Shown one piece after another: positions 1,037 to 50,742 of a stretch of 64,000 nt of DNA (the first letter of the stretch is position 1; every line of letters begins with the position of its first letter). The notes under the pieces are model-generated. The model searched no databases. It saw nothing but the letters and a program-made list of their open reading frames with translations, and was not told where the DNA came from. This stretch comes from Mageeibacillus sp. UBA5436. GTDB lineage: Bacteria > Bacillota > Clostridia > Saccharofermentanales > DTU023. The stretch spans positions 12,383-76,382 of the forward strand of contig DIRM01000046.1 in the NCBI GenBank assembly GCA_002427545.1. Reading direction: 5' to 3'. The translations under genes and the position numbers were made by a program.

Positions 1037-2977
1037 ATGGCCGTAAGAAAGAAAAACATTGAAGATGTAAATGTCAAAGACAAGAAAGTGTTAGTACGTG
1101 TCGACTTTAATGTTCCAGTCGATAAACAAACAAATGAAATTACAGATGATAAAAGAATTAGAGCCGCTTTGCCAACTATTCAATATTTAGTTGATCAAGG
1201 AGCAAAAGTTATTCTCATGTCTCATATGGGCAGACCAAAAGGTGTAGATCCAAAATTATCAATGTCAATCGCGGCAAAACGTTTATCTGAATTGATTAAT
1301 AAAGATGTTATTTTGTCTGATGATGTTGTAGGTGAAGATGCCAAAACAAAAGCCGAGAGCTTAAAATCTGGTGAAATCTTAATGCTAGAAAATCTTCGCT
1401 ATCATGCTGAAGAAACAAAAAATGACCCTGCTTTTGCACGTGAATTAGCTTCATTAGCAGAAATTTATGTAAATGATGCTTTTGGAACAGCCCATAGAGC
1501 TCATGCTTCAACTGCAGGTGTAGCTAATTATTTACCAGCTTATGCAGGATATTTAATTCAAAAAGAAATTGATGTCATGGGTGGAGCAATTTCTGATCCA
1601 AAACAACCATTTGTTGCTATTTTAGGTGGAGCAAAAGTTTCTGATAAAATTGGTGTTATTCGCAATCTGTTAAATAAGGTTGAAACATTGATTGTCGGTG
1701 GTGGTATGGCTTTTACTTTCTTAAAAGCAAAAGGCTATGAAGTTGGAACATCTTTATTAGAAGAAGATAAAATCGAATTAGCAAAAATTTTATTAGAAGA
1801 AGCTGAAGCTAAGAATGTTTCTTTATTATTACCAGTTGATATTGTAGCAGCAACAAAATTTGCAGCTGATGCTGATTATGAAATTGTTGATGCTGACAAA
1901 ATGCCTGCTGACCGCATGGGCCTCGATATTGGACCTAAAACAATCGAACTATTTTCTAATACAGTTAAAAATGCTGGTACAGTAGTTTGGAATGGCCCAA
2001 TGGGCGTTTTTGAATTTGAAGAATTTGCTAAAGGTACAAAAGCAGTGGCAGAAGCTTTGGCCAATTCAGATGCTATTAGTATTGTTGGCGGTGGTGATTC
2101 TGCAGCAGCTGTTGAATTATTGGGCTATGCAGATAAAATAACTCATATTTCTACTGGAGGCGGAGCTTCTTTAGAATTATTAGAAGGAAAAGTTTTGCCT
2201 GGTATTGATGCAATTCAAAATGCTGGTGCTAGACGAACAATGGCAGCTGGTAATTGGAAAATGAATGCTGGTGTTCCAGCTGATGCTGAAAAATTATTAA
2301 CGGAATTATTACCATTGGTAAAAGATGCTGCTAATGAAATTGTAATTGGTGTTCCATTTACAGCAATTAGTAAAGCATTAGAAGTAACAGCCTATTCAAA
2401 TGTTAAAATTGCAGCAGAAAATTGCCATTATGAAGATAAAGGTGCTTACACTGGTGAAGTATCTGCCAAAATGTTAGCTGAAATGAAAGTGCCTTTTGTT
2501 ATTATCGGCCATTCAGAACGCAGAGAATATTTTAATGAAACAAATGAAACTGTTAATTTAAAAGCAAAAGCAGCATTAAATTGGGGCGTTAGACCTATTG
2601 TTTGTTGTGGTGAAACACTTGAACAAAGAGAATCTGGTCAAACATTTGATTGGATTAAGGAACAGATAACAGAAGGTTTAAAAGATATTCCAGCAGAAAA
2701 AATGAGCTTCATTACTATTGCCTATGAACCTATTTGGGCAATCGGTACTGGAAAAACAGCAAGTGATGAACAAGCTCAAGAAGTTTGTGCTTATATCAGA
2801 AAACTGGTAGCTGAATTATATGATCAAGAAATCGCGGATGCCTTAAGAATATTATATGGTGGTTCTGTTAATGCCAAAAATGCTGAAAGCTTATTTGGTC
2901 AACCAGACATTGACGGCGGTTTAGTTGGAGGCGCATCCTTAAAACCAAATGATTTCAAAGTAATTTGTTTTGCATAA
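1037..2977 (+). CDS. pgk/tpiA: Fused phosphoglycerate kinase / triosephosphate isomerase (bifunctional PGK-TIM, 646 aa)
   Basis: The N-terminal ~396 aa match PGK ([39 protein letters not shown]). From M402 onward the sequence matches TIM ([33 protein letters not shown]). One continuous reading frame with no stop at the junction. Confidence 0.93.
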
Positions 2978-2991
2978 ATGTATCGACATAA

Positions 2992-3026
2992 CATTAGGCT
3001 CAAGTTAACTTGAGCCTAATGTTTTT
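2992..3026 (+). terminator. Rho-independent terminator after pgk/tpiA
   Basis: Perfect inverted repeat cattaggctcaagt / acttgagcctaatg (2992-3021) followed by a TTTTT run. Confidence 0.8.
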
Positions 3027-3216
3027 AATCATTTATAATTAAAGTAATTTCAAACAAAAAATAGAAATCTAAAAACTTTTCATAATAGATATAAAATCAT
3101 AGGGTGATTATAGCTCTTTTTGTGGATATTCATATAAAAAGGGTAAAGTTATGCTATAATTAAAAATACTAAATTAATAAAAAAACCGTTTTATTTTTCA
3201 GTAAAAGGAGAGAAAT

Positions 3217-6200
3217 ATGACAAAAAACAAAAAGTTTATGACGATGGATGGAAATACAGCTTGTGCGTATACTTCTTACGCATTTTCAGAAGTTGCTGGT
3301 ATTTATCCAATTACTCCATCATCACCGATGGCTGACTATGTTGATCAATGGTCACAAGAAGGAAGAAAAAATATTTTTGGACAAACAGTCAATGTTATTG
3401 AAATGCAATCCGAAGCAGGTGCTGCAGGATTTGTGCATGGTTCTTTAGCAACAGGAGCATTAACAACTACTTATACCGCTTCTCAAGGTTTGCTGTTAAT
3501 GATACCAAATATGTATAAAATTGCTGGTGAATTATTGCCAGGCGTTTTCCACGTTTCAGCTAGAGCTGTTGCTGGCCAAGCTTTATCCATATTTGGGGAT
3601 CAATCTGATGTTATGGCTTGCCGACAAACTGGTTTTGCTATGTTAGCTTCATCTAGCGTACAAGAAGCTCATGAAGTAGCAGCAATCGCGCATTTAGCAG
3701 CCATTAAAGGTCGTGTCCCTTTCCTACATTTCTTTGATGGATTTAGAACCTCTCATGAAATTCAAAAAATTGAAATCATGGACTATGAAGATCTCAAAGA
3801 ATTAGTTGATATGGATGCAATTGAAGCTTTCCGCAAACGTAGTTTGAGTCCAAATGATCCAGTTATTCGCGGTACGGCTCAAAATCCAGATATCAATTTC
3901 CAAGCAAGAGAAGCATCAAATCCTTTCTATGATAATTTATTACCTATTATAGAAGATTATATGGCAAAGATTAGTGATTTAACCGGTCGCGAATATAAAC
4001 CATTTGGATATTATGGTGCAGAAGATGCAGAAGAAATTATCATTTGTATGGGTTCTGTTTATGAAACAGCGCGCGAAACAGTTGACTATTTAAATGCACA
4101 TGGCCGTAAAGTTGGTGTTATCCATGTTTACTTATATCGTCCATTCTCGATTGAGCGCATTCGTGAAACTATCCCATCTACTGTTAAAAAAATTGCAGTC
4201 TTAGATCGTACTAAAGAACCTGGTTCACAAGGTGAGCCTTTATACTTAGATGTTATTAGTGCTTTTAAAGGCGATCCTAATGCTCCAATTATTGTTGGTG
4301 GACGTTATGGTTTAGGTTCAAAAGACACGACTCCAGATCAAATTAATGCCGTCTTTACTAACTTACATAATGATCAACCTTTAGAAAGATTTACGATTGG
4401 TATTAATGATGATGTTACTCATTTATCATTACCTCTTGGTGATTCTATCGATGTTACCAAAGAAGGCACAGTAGCTGCTCGTTTCTGGGGTTTAGGCTCA
4501 GATGGTACAGTTGGTGCTAATAAAAACTCTATTAAAATTATTGGTGATCATACAGACATGTATGCACAAGCATATTTCAGCTATGACTCTAAAAAATCTG
4601 GTGGTATCACTATTTCTGACTTGCGTTTTGGCCATCAACCAATTCGTGCACCATATTTAGTTGATAAAGCAGACTTTATCGCTTGTCATAATCAATCATA
4701 TGTTGATAACTACGATATGTTGGCTCCATTAAAAAAGGGTGGTTCATTCTTATTAAATACGCAATGGAATGCTGAAGAATTAAATGAACATTTACCTAAC
4801 AAAATGAAACGCTTTATTGCCCAAAATGATATTAACTTTTACACAATTGATGCGGTTGATTTAGCTGGTGAAATTGGCTTAGGTTCAAGAATTAATACCA
4901 TTTGCCAAGCAGCTTATTTCAAAATTACAGAAGTTATGCCTGTTGATGAAGCAGTCAAATATATGAAAGAAATGATTGTTAAATCTTATGGTAATAAGGG
5001 GCAAGATATCATTGACATGAACTATGCTGCTGTTGATACAGGTGTAGAAAATGTTGTAAAAATTGATGTTCCGGCAGAATGGGCAAATTTAGAAGATGAA
5101 GCTTTACCAGTTCGTGAAGCACCTGATTTCATTAAAAATATTGCTGATATAATGAATCGTCAAGAAGGTGACAGTCTACCAGTATCTGCTTTTGTAGATC
5201 GTGAAGATGGTCATATTCCTTCTGGAACCGCTCAATATGAAAAACGTGGTATTGCAATCAATATTCCTTCTTGGAAACCAGACAAATGTATTCAATGTAA
5301 TCAATGCTCTTTTGTATGTCCACATGCTGTCATTAGACCAGTACTATTAGATGACGAAGAAGCAGACAAAGCACCAGAAGGCTTTATTACAATTGGTGGT
5401 TCAAAACCTTATGATAAATTCCAATATCGTATTCAAGTTTCAATTTTAGACTGTACTGGCTGTGGTTCATGCGCCAATGTATGTCCTAAAGATGCTCTTG
5501 AAATGGAGCCAATTGAAAATCATATGGTTGAAGCTGAATATTGGGACTTTGCACAAAAAGAAGTTAAACCAAAAGCTAATCCAATGAAGAAAACAACAGT
5601 AAAAGGTTCACAATTTGAAACACCATTACTCGAATTCTCAGGAGCTTGTGCAGGTTGTGGTGAAACACCATATATTAAACTATTAACACAATTATTTGGC
5701 GATAGAATGCAAATCTCAAATGCTACTGGCTGTAGCTCAATTTGGGGCGCCTCATCACCATCCACTCCATATACTAAGAACCATGATGGTCATGGTCCAG
5801 CTTGGTCAAATTCATTATTTGAAGATGCTGCTGAACATGGAATGGGCATGCATATGGGTGCAAAACAAATTCGTGAGAGAGCTTCTCATACGCTAAAACA
5901 ATTACTTGATCTGGATGTTGATGCCAAGATTAAAGAAACAGCTGATGCTTGGTTCGCTGATTATGAAAATGGCGAAAAATCTCGTGCATTGTCTGATGAT
6001 TTAATTGCCGCATTATCTGATTACTCAGGTGATAATGCTGAAGCTAAAAAATATATTGAGTCTATCTTAGATTTAAAAGATTATTTGATGAAACGTTCAT
6101 CATGGATTATCGGTGGTGATGGTTGGGCATACGATATCGGTTATGGTGGATTAGATCATGTTCTAGCCTCTGGAGAAGATATTAATGTCTTTGTCTTAGA

Positions 6201-21309: not shown

Positions 21310-21373
21310 TTATCTTAATCATATTCGAATATCAGAATAAAATTTCATTTAAGAACATAGAAATGAGGTGACA

Positions 21374-21811
21374 ATGGCTTGGCTATATTGGCTTATTGCA
21401 ATCATATTTTTTACTATTGCTGAAGCTTTAACGGTTAGTATGATTTCGGTTTGGTTTATCGTAGGCTCTTTAGTAGCAATGTTTGTATCTTTATTTGGAG
21501 GTACGGTAACTTGGCAAATTATCTCTTTTATCGTTATTTCTACTATCGGTTTAATCATTTATTTGGTTTGGATTAAGCAAAGGTTGACCCGCAATGATAA
21601 AATTATAGAAAGAACTAATGCAGATCGAATTTTAGAACAAGAGGGTATTGTGATACAAACCATTAATCCAATTGAAAATACAGGCTTGATCAAAGTTAAA
21701 GGTCAAACATGGAGTGCAAATTCTTATGAAGAACAAATTATCGAAAAAGATACGATCATAATAGTAAAAGAAATCAAAGGTGTGAGGGCAATTGTTATTC
21801 CCAAAAACTAA
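21374..21811 (+). CDS. NfeD-family membrane protein
   Basis: Start taken as the ATG at 21374, after GAGG (the track uses GTG at 21368). Three TM helices, then a C-terminal OB-like soluble domain (GLIKVKGQTWSA...). Immediately upstream of an SPFH gene, which is the canonical NfeD-SPFH pairing. Confidence 0.8.
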   Translation: MAWLYWLIAIIFFTIAEALTVSMISVWFIVGSLVAMFVSLFGGTVTWQIISFIVISTIGLIIYLVWIKQRLTRNDKIIERTNADRILEQEGIVIQTINPIENTGLIKVKGQTWSANSYEEQIIEKDTIIIVKEIKGVRAIVIPKN

Positions 21812-21831
21812 TAACTAAAGGAGAATTTTTT

Positions 21832-22791
21832 ATGTTTAATCCATATATACTTCAATTAACCGTTTTATCTAGTGTAGCAATTATGATACCATTCGTTATT
21901 CTCATTTTTCTCATCTTATTATTGATTATTCGCAATGTCATTGTTGTACCGCAAGCCCATGTTTTTGTTTTAGAAAGATTGGGTGGCTTTAAAGTTGCCT
22001 GGGGAACAGGCTTGCATTTAAAAGTTCCTTTTATTGATCGCATTTCTCGCAAAATTTCTTTGAAAGAAAAGGTTGCCGATTTTGCACCTCAATTTGTTAT
22101 CACAAAAGATAATGTAACCATGCAAATTGATACGGTTCTCTTCTATCAAATAGTTGATCCTGTACTTTATTCATACGGCATAGAAAATCCAATTAATGCA
22201 ATTGACAATTTATCTGCAACGACATTACGTAATATTATTGGTGACTTGGAATTAGACGAAACCCTAACATCAAGAGATACCATAAACACGCAAATGCGTA
22301 TCTTATTGGATGAGGCAACTGATCCTTGGGGCATCAAAGTAAACCGAGTTGAGCTCAAAAATATTATTCCACCCCAAGATATTCAAAATGCGATGGAAAG
22401 ACAGATGAAGGCAGAACGTGAAAAACGTGAAAGTATTTTGATTGCAGAAGGAAAAAAAGAATCTCAAATTCGTATAGCTGAAGGTGAGAAAGAAGCCGCT
22501 ATTTTGAGAGCCGATGCTAAAAGAGAACAGGCCATTCGTGAAGCTGATGGTGAGGCACAAGCAATTTTAAAAATTCAAAAAGCAAAAGCAGATGGCTTAG
22601 CCATGATTAAAGCGGTTGCTGCTGATAAAAATGTTATTACTTTGAGAGGCCTAGAAGCGATGGAAAAAGTCGCGGATGGAAAAGCAACAAAAATAATTAT
22701 ACCAAGTGAGTTACAAAGCCTTGCTACAGCTGGTATTACTTTAAAAGAAATGTTTTCAGATACGCCAGATAATACAAAAAGTGAAAAATAG
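21832..22791 (+). CDS. SPFH/band-7 (stomatin/prohibitin-like) membrane protein
   Basis: N-terminal TM segment. SPFH core (VVPQAHVFVLERLGGF...FVITKDNVTMQIDTVLFYQIVDP...). C-terminal Ala/Glu/Lys-rich coiled coil. Confidence 0.9.
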   Translation: MFNPYILQLTVLSSVAIMIPFVILIFLILLLIIRNVIVVPQAHVFVLERLGGFKVAWGTGLHLKVPFIDRISRKISLKEKVADFAPQFVITKDNVTMQIDTVLFYQIVDPVLYSYGIENPINAIDNLSATTLRNIIGDLELDETLTSRDTINTQMRILLDEATDPWGIKVNRVELKNIIPPQDIQNAMERQMKAEREKRESILIAEGKKESQIRIAEGEKEAAILRADAKREQAIREADGEAQAILKIQKAKADGLAMIKAVAADKNVITLRGLEAMEKVADGKATKIIIPSELQSLATAGITLKEMFSDTPDNTKSEK

Positions 22792-22829: not shown

Positions 22830-24023
22830 ATGTTAATAGGCGTAAAAATCAAAAACTTTGGCTTATTGCAAGAATTTTCATTAGGTCTTGATTTGCAAGA
22901 TCTTCTTGGTCTTACAAATTTGAAAGAAAGGCGAAAATTACCTGCCTTAAATCCATTAAGTGTTTTTATTGGTAAGAATGCTAGTGGTAAGTCTACTTTT
23001 TTTGAAGCCTTAAGGTTTTTATCTGAAGCAATATCTTTAAATGTTCATATTGCGAGCAATCAATCTAAACAAGGCAGTTATTCTGATTTAATTTTTAATT
23101 ATCAACCTGAAGAATATGATTTAGAATTTGATCTTATTTATGAAAAAAAATTAGGAGAATGGCTAAATTATTATCTGAAAATATCATCAGATGAATTTTC
23201 ACGCCCATATTTTGCCAAAGAAAAATTAACAAAATATGTTTTTAATAAAGCTCAAATGCATGAACAATTATTATTAGAAATAGAATCTAAAGAAGGAAAA
23301 ATTTTACAAGTTGATAGTTTAAACAAACAATTCTTTAAGCCTATTCAATTAACTGAAAGAAAAGTTTCTGCCATCAATATTTTTGGAAGACAAAAAGAAT
23401 ATGAGGATATTGGATTTTTATATTATCAAATCTCCCATTTTTATTATGCAGATTATAAACAATTACCAAGAAAAGTGAGTAAAACTCAAAAAACTGGTGG
23501 ACATAAACACTTAAATGCCAGTTATTCAAATGTCGAAAATGTAATTTACTATTTAAAAAAGCGAAAACCGAAAGAGTATAAAGATTTACAAAAAAGACTT
23601 AATCAAAACTTACACAATCACAATAGTATTGATTTAAATCAATTAGATAAGCTAGACAATGAAGCGCAAATTAGATATTTAATTTCTTATTTAATTTTGT
23701 CTGATGATAAACCTTTAATTGCTTTCGATAATCCAGATAATGGACTATATTATGAAATGAGTGATTCACTAGCTTTAGAATTTCGAGACTATACATTACG
23801 CAATGAAAATCCTCAAATTTTTATTGCAACTCATAATACAAATATGTTAGAAAATTTTTCTCCTTATGAAGTTTGGTCGTTTGATCGCATTCAAAATGAA
23901 CAAGGCATTGATCAAATTAAAACACGATATTTAGGATTTAATTCAGTTATTACCGCCATGTATCAGGAGGGGATTGGATTAGGCTCTTTATTATATAGTG
24001 GATATTTGGATAAAAATAAATAA
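22830..24023 (+). CDS. SMC/ABC-type (AAA_21/OLD-like) ATPase with a non-canonical Walker B; candidate defence ATPase
   Basis: MLIGVKIKNFGLL lead strand. Walker A GKNASGKST (residues 48-56, nt 22971-22997). A ~240-aa insertion, then KPLIAFDNPDNGLYYE (Walker B/D-loop position) and FIATHN (H-loop position). Confidence 0.7.
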   Translation: MLIGVKIKNFGLLQEFSLGLDLQDLLGLTNLKERRKLPALNPLSVFIGKNASGKSTFFEALRFLSEAISLNVHIASNQSKQGSYSDLIFNYQPEEYDLEFDLIYEKKLGEWLNYYLKISSDEFSRPYFAKEKLTKYVFNKAQMHEQLLLEIESKEGKILQVDSLNKQFFKPIQLTERKVSAINIFGRQKEYEDIGFLYYQISHFYYADYKQLPRKVSKTQKTGGHKHLNASYSNVENVIYYLKKRKPKEYKDLQKRLNQNLHNHNSIDLNQLDKLDNEAQIRYLISYLILSDDKPLIAFDNPDNGLYYEMSDSLALEFRDYTLRNENPQIFIATHNTNMLENFSPYEVWSFDRIQNEQGIDQIKTRYLGFNSVITAMYQEGIGLGSLLYSGYLDKNK

Positions 24024-24028
24024 TAATT

Positions 24029-24724
24029 ATGTTGCTTGAAGTTTTATGCGAAGACAAATCATCAGTTCCTGTTTTAAATCATATTTTGCAAAAAATATTG
24101 CAAAATTATCAATTTGTTAATCAAATACATATTTATCCGCATCGTGGCAAGGGAAAATTACCTGATAATATTAAGGAAAAGCCAAAATCTTCCACGAGTT
24201 CTTTGCTTGATCTTTTACCTGCTAAAATTAGAGCCTATGATAAATCGTATAAAGATGAAGAAATCATTTTTATTGTTGTTTTAGATCTCGATGATCAAAA
24301 TCTCAGTGAATTATATAAGAGCATTGAATATGTTTTTCGTAGTGAATCCCCTAATAAATATTTCGTTATTGGTATTTGTATTGAAGAGATGGAAGCCTGG
24401 CTATTGGGCGATAAAGAGGCCTTATTGAGTGCATATCCTAATGCTAATCAAAATGTGTTAAATCAATATCAACAGGATGGTATAGGACATACATGGGAAA
24501 TTTTGGCAGAAGTTATTTTAGACCAAAAGGCAGATAATTTAATAGAAGCAGGTTATCCAGCTGTAGGAATTTATAAATATCATTGGGCAGAAAAGATAGC
24601 TCCATATATGCAAATACATCATAATAAATCACCAAGCTTTCAAGACTTTGTCAAAAGAATGTGTCAAGTCTTAAATTGGGTAGAAGAGAAAAGGCAAAAT
24701 GTTAAAATTGCAGAAAAATCCTAA
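24029..24724 (+). CDS. Small TOPRIM-like protein (DUF4276/RloB-like by memory); candidate nuclease partner of the upstream ATPase
   Basis: Starts 5 nt after the ATPase stop. LLEVLCEDKSS (E8) and IIFIVVLDLDDQN (D86/D88/D89, nt 24284-24295) give an E...DxD pattern. CIEEMEAWLLGD acidic helix. No TM segment or signal peptide. Confidence 0.5.
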   Translation: MLLEVLCEDKSSVPVLNHILQKILQNYQFVNQIHIYPHRGKGKLPDNIKEKPKSSTSSLLDLLPAKIRAYDKSYKDEEIIFIVVLDLDDQNLSELYKSIEYVFRSESPNKYFVIGICIEEMEAWLLGDKEALLSAYPNANQNVLNQYQQDGIGHTWEILAEVILDQKADNLIEAGYPAVGIYKYHWAEKIAPYMQIHHNKSPSFQDFVKRMCQVLNWVEEKRQNVKIAEKS

Positions 24725-25868
24725 TATAGATGATCCCATTGAAAATTTATATATTCATGTACCTTTTTGTCATAAAAAATGTGGTTATTGTGATTATTAC
24801 TCTATTGTAAGTCAAACTGCAGATTATGAATCTTTTTTAGAGGCCATTAAAAAAGAATGGAAAATAACAAAGAATTATCTTGAAAAAAATCATAATCCAT
24901 TACGTCCACTTAAAACATTGTACTTTGGAGGCGGAACGCCTTCTGTTTTGTCTCCTCAAATCTTGACTCAACTGATTAATTATTTTGAATCTGAGATTGG
25001 TTTTGCTTCAGATATTGAAATAACAATGGAAGTTAATCCAGAACCAATCGGTCAAGAGACAGTTTTAGCTGGGATAAAAACTGGAGTCAATCGAATTTCA
25101 TTAGGTTTTCAGGCTAAACAAGATCATTTATTAAAAAAAATCGGTCGATTACATTCTTATCAAGATTTTTTGAGAATGTTAGATTTAATTAGAGAACAAG
25201 GTATCAAAAATATAAGTTGTGATTTAATGTTTGGTTTACCTGATCAAAATATAGAAGAAGCGCTAATAAGTGCTCAAACGTTAATTGATTTGCAAATTCC
25301 TCATATCAGCTTTTATTCTTTAATTTTGGAAGAAAACACATTGTTTTATAAAAAATATGCCAAACATCCAGAATTATTACCCAGTGAAGATTCAGAAAGA
25401 GAGATGTATCGTCAGCTCTTAAATATATTTGAATCTAATCAATATCAATATTATGAATTATCCAGTGTGGCCAAAGACAATTACTTTTCTCGCCATAATT
25501 ATAATTATTGGTCAACAAAACCTTATTTAGGTTTAGGCCCAGGTGCTCATTCATATTTTAATGGTATACGTAAAGGTAACATACGTTCCATTAAAGATTG
25601 GGCATTAGATCCTTGGAAAAGTGCAGAAATAGAAGAAATTGATTTTGATTTAGCGATGCGTGAATACGCTATGTTAGCTTTTCGCCTAAATGAAGGATTT
25701 TCTGTGGAAAAATTTGAAAAGCGTTTCTTAATAAAAAATCCTTTTGAAAAAGAACTTAAAAACCTAATAGAACAGGGACTAATTGTTAAAGATCAGCAAT
25801 TTGAACAATATTATTTAAATCCCAAAGGTCTTGATTTTGCAAATCTTGTTTTCATGGAATTTCTCTAA
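24699..25868 (+). CDS. hemW: Radical-SAM heme chaperone HemW (HemN-like, oxygen-independent coproporphyrinogen oxidase family)
   Basis: LYIHVPFCHKKCGYCDYY (CxxxCxxC), GGGTPS, and a HemN C-terminal domain. Conserved position upstream of hrcA, as in Bacillus. Confidence 0.9.
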   Translation: MLKLQKNPNIDDPIENLYIHVPFCHKKCGYCDYYSIVSQTADYESFLEAIKKEWKITKNYLEKNHNPLRPLKTLYFGGGTPSVLSPQILTQLINYFESEIGFASDIEITMEVNPEPIGQETVLAGIKTGVNRISLGFQAKQDHLLKKIGRLHSYQDFLRMLDLIREQGIKNISCDLMFGLPDQNIEEALISAQTLIDLQIPHISFYSLILEENTLFYKKYAKHPELLPSEDSEREMYRQLLNIFESNQYQYYELSSVAKDNYFSRHNYNYWSTKPYLGLGPGAHSYFNGIRKGNIRSIKDWALDPWKSAEIEEIDFDLAMREYAMLAFRLNEGFSVEKFEKRFLIKNPFEKELKNLIEQGLIVKDQQFEQYYLNPKGLDFANLVFMEFL

Positions 25869-25955: not shown

Positions 25956-25984
25956 TTGACAGTCAATGACGTGAATGCTAAAGT
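25956..25984 (+). promoter_or_regulatory. Putative SigA promoter of the hrcA operon
   Basis: TTGACA (25956-25961), 17-nt spacer, TAAAGT (25979-25984), immediately upstream of the CIRCE element. Confidence 0.5.
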
Positions 25985-25988
25985 TGTT

Positions 25989-26015
25989 TTAGCACTCGGA
26001 ATGATTGAGTGCTAA
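25989..26015 (+). promoter_or_regulatory. CIRCE operator (HrcA binding site)
   Basis: TTAGCACTC-ggaatgatt-GAGTGCTAA. Exact match to the consensus TTAGCACTC-N9-GAGTGCTAA. Confidence 0.95.
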
Positions 26016-48738: not shown

Positions 48739-48765
48739 TTAGCACTCGGATGTAAAGAGTGCTAA
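48739..48765 (+). promoter_or_regulatory. CIRCE operator (HrcA binding site) upstream of groES
   Basis: TTAGCACTC-ggatgtaaa-GAGTGCTAA, an exact consensus match. Confidence 0.95.

Positions 48766-49116: not shown

Positions 49117-50742
<1,626 letters not shown>

Follow-up and report, generated by a model that had tools for sequence, protein, structure and literature searches.

How did a gene pair that resembles a phage defence module come to stand directly upstream of the housekeeping gene hemW, and what function might it serve there? This question is raised by a locus of Mageeibacillus sp. UBA5436, a member of the order Saccharofermentanales (Bacillota; Clostridia), of which a stretch of 64,000 nucleotides was analysed (NCBI GenBank assembly GCA_002427545.1, contig DIRM01000046.1, positions 12,383 to 76,382 of the forward strand; this whole stretch is referred to as the window). 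At positions 24029-24724, the window contains a gene for a protein of 231 amino acids, which the initial annotation, made from the sequence alone, tentatively took to be a stand-alone minimal Toprim nuclease whose activity would be gated by the upstream ATPase. As set out below, this gene and the ATPase gene in front of it match the two components of a named candidate defence system, HEC-01, and the pair occupies the same position upstream of hemW in all relatives for which synteny was counted. We favour, with some reservation, the reading that it represents a HEC-01-type nuclease module in a fixed form, which has a defence or defence-like function.

The gene pair and its relation to HEC-01

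Three genes of the window are central to the question:

22830-24023, plus strand: gene of the ABC-type ATPase partner (HEC-01A; Pfam AAA_21/AAA_15), 397 amino acids
24029-24724, plus strand: DUF4276 / HEC-01B gene, 231 amino acids, ATG start; Toprim-like α/β core (residues 1-117) and helical C-terminal domain (residues 122-230)
24699-25868, plus strand: hemW (radical-SAM haem chaperone), the start of which overlaps the DUF4276 stop by 26 nt

The ATPase and the DUF4276 protein are encoded by two separate open reading frames with a stop codon between them, and the spacer from the ATPase stop to the DUF4276 start is 5 nt long. The 231-amino acid protein matches the Pfam family DUF4276 (PF14103) with an E-value of 1.2e-11 (45.7 bits against a gathering cut-off of 30.2; residues 7-211 on profile positions 1-191 of 192) and the PADLOC model HEC-01B (PDLC04205) with an E-value of 6.9e-67 (residues 1-212 on model positions 1-210 of 213). 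The 397-amino acid product of the adjacent, co-oriented gene is matched by the PADLOC model HEC-01A (PDLC04182; 1.2e-55) and by the Pfam families AAA_21 (4.6e-19) and AAA_15 (1e-13). Weaker matches of the ATPase were obtained to AriA models (6e-20) and AbiLi (1e-18), and those to Mad3 and NsnB models are weak; its score against the NCBIfam MAD3 model is 38.9 bits, compared with a cut-off of 420, so that it is not an equivalog. For the DUF4276 protein, the Pfam and PADLOC scans gave no match to AriB or DUF4435, and it did not match the RloB or AbiLii models.

HEC-01 (Hma-embedded candidate 01) was described as a candidate defence system, "an ATPase associated with a TOPRIM protein" (Payne et al., 10.1101/2024.01.29.577857), and one HEC-01 representative protected Escherichia coli B from at least one of the phages T4, T5 and T7 (10.1101/2024.09.26.614923). 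The Menshen study explicitly proposed DUF4276 and RloB as additions to Toprim and mentions the MADS Mad4 homologue as well (PMC12065111); an OLD-like metal site and membership of the Toprim superfamily have been assigned to DUF4276/HEC-01B (10.1101/2024.01.29.577857; PMC12065111), and in the PARIS paper, DUF4276 is named as one of the partners that AAA15/21 ATPases have (PMC11464382). The Toprim reading of DUF4276 is already published, and the core idea of the initial annotation is not new. At E≤1e-3, the family is sizeable with 1,992 cluster representatives (clustering at 50% identity), and public annotation names the relatives "DUF4276 family protein" or hypothetical, just as had been predicted for the gene of the window. 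Judged by its profile matches, the 231-amino acid gene is an ordinary member of a named candidate system and not an isolated novelty.

Linkage to hemW and vertical inheritance

A scan with one genome per species gave 588 relatives, and synteny was counted in the best 80 of the 588 (39-73% identity), which include metagenome-assembled genomes and isolates labelled Mageeibacillus, Fastidiosipila, Saccharofermentans, "Oscillospiraceae", "Ruminococcaceae" and "Saccharofermentanales". In 80/80 of these loci, the ATPase gene lies directly upstream and hemW directly downstream of the DUF4276 gene; hemW is inverted in one of them and located 1.6 kb away in another. Homologues with 73%, 58% and 49% identity share the gene context of the window. 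In 67/80 loci, the DUF4276 stop overlaps or abuts the hemW start (median gap -1 nt), the hemW starts being assigned by homology and approximate, and the median gap between the ATPase and DUF4276 genes is 12 nt, compared with a median spacing of 170 nt between hemW and hrcA. Based on this layout, the pair is probably co-transcribed and translationally coupled with hemW. The genes for NfeD and Band_7, which precede the pair in the window, are found upstream in only 23/80 loci; the conserved unit therefore consists of the ATPase, DUF4276 and hemW, and a functional tie of the module to NfeD/Band_7 was rejected, given 23/80 upstream compared with hemW downstream in 80/80. The link is not a general trait of hemW either: among the matches listed, the pair is present in just one of 46 metagenomic hemW loci that were taken at random and have 2.5 kb or more of sequence upstream, and this sole positive is a relative. 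As these 46 loci mostly carry distant hemW genes, they serve as a background control only.

The downstream flank of hemW is a variable spot, since two related loci carry AAA_14/DUF4143 ATPase genes there instead of hrcA, with ATPase-DUF4276-hemW intact; several copies are present in L185 (6018-9904) and one at the end of L186 (10038-10185).

Several lines of evidence point to vertical inheritance. The distance matrix of the DUF4276 proteins correlates with those of the ATPase (r = 0.93), HemW (0.90), HrcA (0.84) and DnaK (0.78; all Mantel p = 0.001). Among closely related genome pairs, the median ratio of nonsynonymous to synonymous substitution rates (dN/dS or ω) is 0.080 for the ATPase gene and 0.081 for the DUF4276 gene; hemW has a value of 0.116, and hrcA and dnaK are at about 0.03. 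A neighbour-joining tree of 234 members of the family places all 83 hemW-linked sequences in a single clade, which excludes the copies of Selenomonas and Vibrio and about 140 other representatives, and a P-H-R-G motif after β2 is diagnostic for this clade. When six hemW relatives were picked regardless of DUF4276, five carried the pair; in two, the contig end cuts through the DUF4276 gene.

In the sixth, an empty site was found on an ENA contig, ERZ22666190 (L190, 1204-4027), where the gene order is rsmD, coaD, an open reading frame for 157 amino acids and hemW, without the ATPase/DUF4276 pair. A related locus, L188, has the order rsmD, coaD, an open reading frame for 169 amino acids, a HAD hydrolase gene, ATPase, DUF4276 and hemW, and the comparison of the two marks the approximate boundaries of a deletion. 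DnaK of L190 is 88-93% identical to that of pair-positive genomes, and the DnaK of these genomes shares only about 74% identity with that of the window. The simplest reading of these comparisons is a secondary loss, and the empty site rules out that the pair is essential or universal in the lineage.

Outside of the hemW-linked clade, the DUF4276 family looks mobile, as far as its gene neighbourhoods indicate. In Selenomonas ruminantium, the pair lies between hsdS and hsdR of a type I restriction-modification operon (L090, 1116-2612 and 2787-11812), which reads hsdM, hsdS, an open reading frame for 324 amino acids, a nucleotidyltransferase gene, ATPase, DUF4276 and hsdR. In Vibrio spartinae, it is part of a variable island near mnmE, and in Pseudomonas it is found on a conjugative plasmid between the genes of a type IV secretion system and a relaxase. 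Just upstream of the Selenomonas operon lies a flotillin-like Band_7 gene, which echoes the neighbour in the window and is probably a coincidence. An ATPase/DUF4276 pair, the DUF4276 protein of which is 36% identical to that of the window, was also detected in a record from human faeces (L191, MT836340.1, "UNVERIFIED Bacteriophage sp.", 2743-4593); this is the only match in 50,697 phage records, and the record is unannotated and may not be viral.

The comparative evidence shows that the hemW-linked clade does not represent a mobile island: the ancestor of a lineage spanning the Saccharofermentanales acquired a single copy directly upstream of hemW, which was then passed on vertically under strong purifying selection, with at least one secondary loss. 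By the same evidence, the module is ancient, widespread and constrained in the Saccharofermentanales, yet dispensable.

Conserved residues and predicted structure of the DUF4276 protein

Since the highest 19-residue Kyte-Doolittle mean of the 231-amino acid protein is only 0.75, no transmembrane segment is expected, which agrees with the initial annotation of this open reading frame; the isoelectric point is 5.7. The following positions are candidates for an active site:

24050-24055, plus strand: E8-D9, candidate Toprim glutamate, right after β1 (residues 2-7), conserved in 81/81 orthologues
24284-24292, plus strand: D86-L-D88 (DxD), at the end of β3 (residues 79-86), invariant in 81 orthologues and 82 family representatives
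24383-24412, plus strand: E119-E120-M-E122-A-W-L-L-G-D128, candidate second metal site, right after β4 (compare Bp OLD T506-x-E508)
24575-24577, plus strand: K183, part of the helical domain, may correspond to the catalytic lysine K562 of OLD, invariant in 82 representatives

In an alignment with 40 homologues, E8, G40, G42, D86, D88, E120, E122 and W124 are invariant. Across 81 species-level orthologues, E8, D9, R39, G40, G42, D86, D88, E119, E120, E122, W124 and D128 are conserved to 100%, and D86, D88, E122 and K183 are invariant among 82 diverse representatives of the whole DUF4276 family. Further conserved motifs are located in the helical C-terminal half, namely Y147-x-Q-D150...T-W-E157 and N199-x-S-x-S203; these and the invariant K183 had been overlooked in the initial annotation. 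Such conservation indicates that the motifs are not due to chance. The residues which had been singled out initially, E8, D86-L-D88-D89 and EEMEAWLLGD (119-128), are all present, and the conserved appearance of the last motif is borne out by the retention of E119, E120, E122, W124 and D128. D89, however, is variable, with an aspartate in only 37/81 orthologues. The basic, serine-rich stretch described between these residues does exist (H34 to S58, HIYPHRGKGKLPDNIKEKPKSSTSS); however, the serine run is not conserved, and the conserved part is P-H-R-G-x-G..P, which lies in a region modelled confidently as a loop (block-mean pLDDT score 93-97).

A full-length model was predicted with AlphaFold2 from an alignment of 41 sequences (pLDDT 95.5, predicted TM score 0.91), and a core of 138 amino acids was predicted separately (pLDDT 88.7). 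According to DSSP, the full-length model consists of β1 (2-7), α1 (12-24), β2 (32-37), an ordered loop (38-58), α2 (59-73), β3 (79-86), α3 (92-106), β4 (111-117) and an all-helical part (122-230); E8 follows β1, the DxD motif ends β3, and E120/E122 follow β4. In Bp OLD, metal A is bound by E400 and D455/D457 and metal B by E404 together with T506/E508 at the start of the helical domain, from which K562 reaches the scissile phosphate (PMC6755086). Going by motif order and by alignments that are not significant, the DUF4276 counterparts of this set, E8, D86xD88, E120xE122 and K183, occur in the same order and spacing. The motifs of P2 Old and DUF4276 can be set side by side in four blocks:

Block 1: P2 Old VLLVEGKTE, DUF4276 LLEVLCEDKSS
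Block 2: P2 Old IVAVDGKG, DUF4276 IYPHRGKG
Block 3: P2 Old RILADCD, DUF4276 IVVLDLDD
Block 4: P2 Old DIEAVYG, DUF4276 IEEMEAWLLG

When 82 DUF4276 proteins were compared with 24,736 Pfam models, the secondary, sub-threshold matches included DUF3226 in nine proteins (best 5.9e-4), OLD-like_TOPRIM in six (2.8e-3) and RloB in four (6.6e-4), three families which are among the five most frequent; DUF4435 and OLD-like_TOPRIM_1 were matched once each, and the unrelated GH43_C and GD_AH_second twice each. Taking together the motif architecture, these convergent weak Pfam matches and the structure comparisons of other groups, an OLD-like Toprim nuclease is most likely the fold and chemistry of DUF4276.

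Remodelling of the partner ATPase

Two motifs of the ATPase are of particular importance for its mode of action:

22971-22994, plus strand: Walker A, G48-K-N-A-S-G-K54-S55; G-x-N-x-[ST]-G-K-[ST] in 79/79 aligned orthologues
23718-23738, plus strand: Walker B region, I297-A-F-D300-N301-P-D303, with Asn in place of the catalytic Glu

The acidic residue of Walker B (D/E) is retained in 81/81 ATPase orthologues, and the histidine of the H-loop, H335 in the window, is kept in 79/81. The position of the catalytic glutamate, however, is occupied by Glu in only 12/81 orthologues; the others have Thr (47), Asn (12, window included), Gln (6), Ser (2), Tyr (1) or Ala (1). The S-x-G of the signature (C-loop) is degenerate in most of the clade, with "LDNEAQ" in the window compared with "MSDGTL" in the outgroup, and the mobile HEC-01A proteins of this outgroup (Selenomonas, Vibrio, Pseudomonas plasmid) have a canonical "EEPE" together with the "MSDGTL" signature. 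The remodelled ATPases are still under strong purifying selection (ω of 0.015-0.04 in "E-T" pairs), so this change is not decay; rather, they seem to have shifted to binding nucleotides and no longer hydrolysing them efficiently. Because the catalytic glutamate and the signature have been lost in most species, and Walker A and the H-loop have been kept, the ATPase of the clade probably works as a nucleotide-binding switch or scaffold and not as a hydrolysing motor. The proposal that the DUF4276 protein is gated by the upstream ATPase fits the adjacency of the two genes in 80/80 loci; however, gating cannot mean canonical ATP hydrolysis here, in view of the asparagine at the catalytic position and the degenerate signature of the window ATPase. 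Between Walker A and the signature, residues 223-229 (23496-23516) read "G-G-H-K-H-L-N", which is present in about 75-79 of 81 orthologues and corresponds to "GPQKHLN" in the mobile homologues.

Proposed mode of action and alternative explanations

According to the reading favoured here, the genes 22830-24023 and 24029-24724 form a HEC-01-type module of an ABC-fold NTP-binding protein and a DUF4276 protein, which is most likely a divalent-metal-dependent OLD-like Toprim nuclease. Metal A would be coordinated by E8 and D86/D88 and metal B by E120/E122, with K183 of the helical domain directed toward the scissile phosphate. By analogy to PARIS, OLD and Gabija, the ATPase may bind the nuclease, restrain or position it and act as a sensor, until a trigger releases or activates the cleavage of nucleic acids, which could be tRNA/RNA or DNA. 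In the hemW-linked clade, control of substrate access by the ATPase would depend on nucleotide binding and probably not on turnover.

A number of observations weigh against this proposal. Inheritance throughout a lineage by vertical descent is unusual for a defence system, and the pair of the window is located among housekeeping genes and not in a defence island. The HEC-01 representative of Payne et al. gave no protection against any phage tested (10.1101/2024.01.29.577857), and no biochemical data for any DUF4276 protein were found in the literature searched. A PARIS-like hydrolysis cycle is unlikely, since the Walker B glutamate is replaced in the window ATPase and the equivalent PARIS mutant, E393A, is ATPase-defective. 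With regard to the nuclease, no Foldseek match reached E≤1e-3 and the top 50 contained no Toprim entry, whether the full model was compared with PDB and BFVD or the 138-amino acid core with PDB; the matches were weak and of a generic α/β type, comprising Arf6, flavodoxin-like folds, ORC/RFC AAA+ lobes and ExoVII. As the Foldseek matches were all generic and non-significant, no independent structural proof of Toprim is claimed. Comparing DUF4276 profiles of 41 and 209 sequences with P2 Old, YbjD and an alignment of 12 OLD/GajA/YbjD Toprim sequences, which had been built from plasmid matches, hhalign gave probabilities of at most 1.4%, and hidden Markov model and profile searches of the PDB sequences with both DUF4276 profiles found nothing. 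In the non-significant hhalign paths, E8, the GxG loop, DxD and K183 are aligned with the matching motifs of OLD, which carries no statistical weight; among them, the low-confidence alignments of E8-D9 with "LLVEGKTE" of P2 Old and of K183 with "GKGrfAqrlA" of OLD are not significant either. Used as a homologue query, the Toprim fragment of P2 Old retrieved only five near-identical fragments, and tblastn against phages P2 itself only. The designation as a minimal Toprim nuclease is partly supported, by the catalytic layout on the model, the conserved acidic motifs and the literature; the Foldseek and hhalign comparisons, however, do not back it.

Alternatively, the pair may have been exapted for a cellular task on nucleic acids, such as maturing or degrading RNA, quality control of ribosomes or tRNA, or DNA repair, and retained for a benefit to the cell in each generation instead of phage defence. 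This explanation is on the unlikely side; in its favour, the position is fixed in 80/80 species genomes, the proteins co-diverge with HemW, HrcA and DnaK, dN/dS is about 0.08 and below that of hemW, the genes appear translationally coupled to a housekeeping gene in 67/80 loci, and the ATPase has lost its catalytic glutamate and signature and is still strongly constrained (ω of 0.015-0.04 in "ET"-type pairs). RNase M5, RecF/RecR and YbjD, a conserved OLD homologue of enterobacteria, may offer parallels; the Toprim region of YbjD lies next to ybjX in E. coli and Yersinia and has been conserved, at 47-89% identity, in replicons of Klebsiella, Proteus and Vibrionaceae. In its most explicit form, a formerly mobile ABC-ATPase/Toprim defence module would have been domesticated on one occasion, in the Saccharofermentanales ancestor, where it became the two leading cistrons of the hemW operon, with an ATPase that no longer hydrolyses ATP and a cellular function in RNA/tRNA processing, quality control or repair; to this version, too, we give only a minor share of the probability. 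Against exaptation, L190 is nested in the clade and has cleanly lost both genes, so that the module is dispensable, and the closest relatives outside of the clade are found in a type I restriction-modification operon, a genomic island and a conjugative plasmid. Moreover, no link to a specific cellular substrate is visible, and the pair lies outside of the CIRCE-controlled unit, so that the heat-shock neighbourhood provides no regulatory tie.

The outcome of the Foldseek and profile comparisons, which returned weak generic α/β matches and no significant similarity to the OLD Toprim, would also fit a DUF4276 protein that is not a nuclease at all, but has a generic three-layer α/β fold of the flavodoxin/Rossmann type, the acidic residues of which bind a metal or nucleotide, for instance in a regulator or adaptor of the ATPase. 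We regard this as improbable, since the complete OLD-type catalytic constellation including the lysine of the helical domain is invariant and in the right order, three OLD-type Toprim families are among the five most frequent sub-threshold Pfam matches with two more found once each, and two publications have independently described Toprim and OLD as structural matches. An addictive, toxin-antitoxin-like cassette, in which a nuclease toxin is held in check by the ATPase and which persists since the loss of the ATPase alone is lethal, is suggested by the Pfam description of AAA_21 ("putative AbiEii toxin, Type IV TA system"), the tight co-evolution of the two genes (r = 0.93) and the toxicity of PARIS AriB once it is released. 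It would leave unexplained why both genes are under an ω of about 0.08 over order-level divergence and remain at one fixed location; both genes can be lost together, as in L190, and the tree of 234 family members gives no sign of mobility inside the clade, which makes a cassette of this kind very unlikely.

Comparison with known systems

In its two proteins and in their order, the pair agrees with HEC-01: the AAA_21-type ABC ATPase comes first and the DUF4276/Toprim-like protein second, and each of them is a strong, full-length match to its HEC-01 model. However, HEC-01 was defined from copies inside Hma and other defence loci, whereas the copy of the window belongs to a housekeeping operon with order-wide vertical inheritance, and the HEC-01 trait of being embedded in or located beside other defence systems was not found, the neighbours being housekeeping genes in the window and likewise in 80/80 relatives. 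In addition, the ATPase of the window clade lacks the catalytic glutamate and signature which the mobile HEC-01A proteins have kept. For HEC-01 itself, the outcomes of defence assays in the literature conflict, one study being negative and another positive for one representative.

PARIS is also a two-gene system, composed of an AAA_15/21 ATPase (AriA) and a separate small Toprim-type effector (AriB), and provides a likely working model, in which a scaffold or sensor ATPase releases a nuclease. The effectors differ, as AriB is a DUF4435 protein. Furthermore, the Walker A mutation K39A blocks trigger binding and AriB release, the Walker B mutant E393A is ATPase-defective, and defence needs ATPase activity; PARIS thus requires a competent AriA ATPase site (K39A, E393A), whereas the window ATPase has an asparagine at the position equivalent to E393. 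The OLD family, which includes P2 Old, Bp and Ts OLD, GajA of Gabija and E. coli YbjD, likewise combines an ABC ATPase with a Toprim nuclease, and its E / DxD / (T/E)xE / K order is matched by the candidate residues of DUF4276; however, OLD is a single polypeptide, whereas two genes are present in the window, and neither profile nor Foldseek similarity is significant. Within this family, YbjD is an example of a nuclease of this type encoded by a stable chromosomal gene. AbiL and RloA-RloB resemble the pair in consisting of an AAA ATPase and a small Toprim-like partner; some DUF4276 members match Pfam RloB weakly, and the Selenomonas pair lies between hsdS and hsdR, as does RloAB in type I restriction-modification loci. 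As with the C-terminal DUF4276 domains of MADS Mad3/Mad4 and Menshen NsnC, DUF4276 is a predicted effector beside an ABC ATPase (PMC12065111), but no methyltransferase or other MADS or Menshen genes are located near the pair of the window.

The clade-level behaviour, that is, the fixation as leading cistrons of the hemW operon across an order, the co-divergence with core genes and the constrained loss of the catalytic glutamate and signature of the ATPase, was not found described in the literature searched, and is put forward here from sequence comparisons. It offers a natural experiment, as a mobile form in restriction-modification operons, islands and plasmids with canonical ATPase motifs can be compared with an order-wide, vertically inherited and constrained hemW-operon form in which hydrolytic residues are replaced. 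This bears on two questions: does control of the nuclease in ABC-ATPase/Toprim systems depend on the hydrolysis of ATP or on its binding alone, and how often are defence modules kept in the long term or exapted? If true, domestication would document how an immune effector pair was exapted into housekeeping. The clade includes cultivable hosts, the rumen isolates YAD3003 and KHP2, in which the DUF4276 protein could be studied in its native setting.

Surroundings of the gene pair in the window

The neighbours of the pair are housekeeping genes: glnS and gltX on the minus strand, a gene for an M28 peptidase, NfeD, Band_7/SPFH, then the pair itself, hemW, hrcA, grpE, dnaK and dnaJ. Other features of the region are:

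21368-22791, plus strand: NfeD and Band_7/SPFH genes, directly upstream of the pair; context only, outside of the conserved module
25956-25984: best σ70-like promoter of the region, TTGACA-17-TAAAGT with a TG extension, in the hemW-hrcA gap, preceding the CIRCE element
25989-26015, plus strand: perfect CIRCE operator (HrcA site), which marks the start of a separate hrcA-grpE-dnaK-dnaJ unit

As CIRCE and the best promoter are situated in the gap between hemW and hrcA, the pair lies outside of the heat-shock regulon proper; control of the pair by HrcA/CIRCE was ruled out, both sites being 3' of hemW. Scans for promoters and terminators around the pair gave background level only and are not counted as evidence. 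The GTG start of hrcA as called mechanically (26009) falls within the CIRCE palindrome, and the true start is probably a codon further downstream. In one assembly (L005, 11291-12475) of the species carrying P0015, an IS110-family transposase gene is inserted between hrcA and grpE; the otherwise identical L004 is without the insertion. Across the ATPase gene (23001-24000), the GC content falls to 26.5%, compared with roughly 30-35% in the adjoining genes, even though the gene has been resident from the origin of the lineage onwards. Another perfect CIRCE element, TTAGCACTC-N9-GAGTGCTAA, is found at 48739-48765, about 360 nt upstream of an open reading frame for 538 amino acids (49126-50742), and is presumably the groES-groEL operator.

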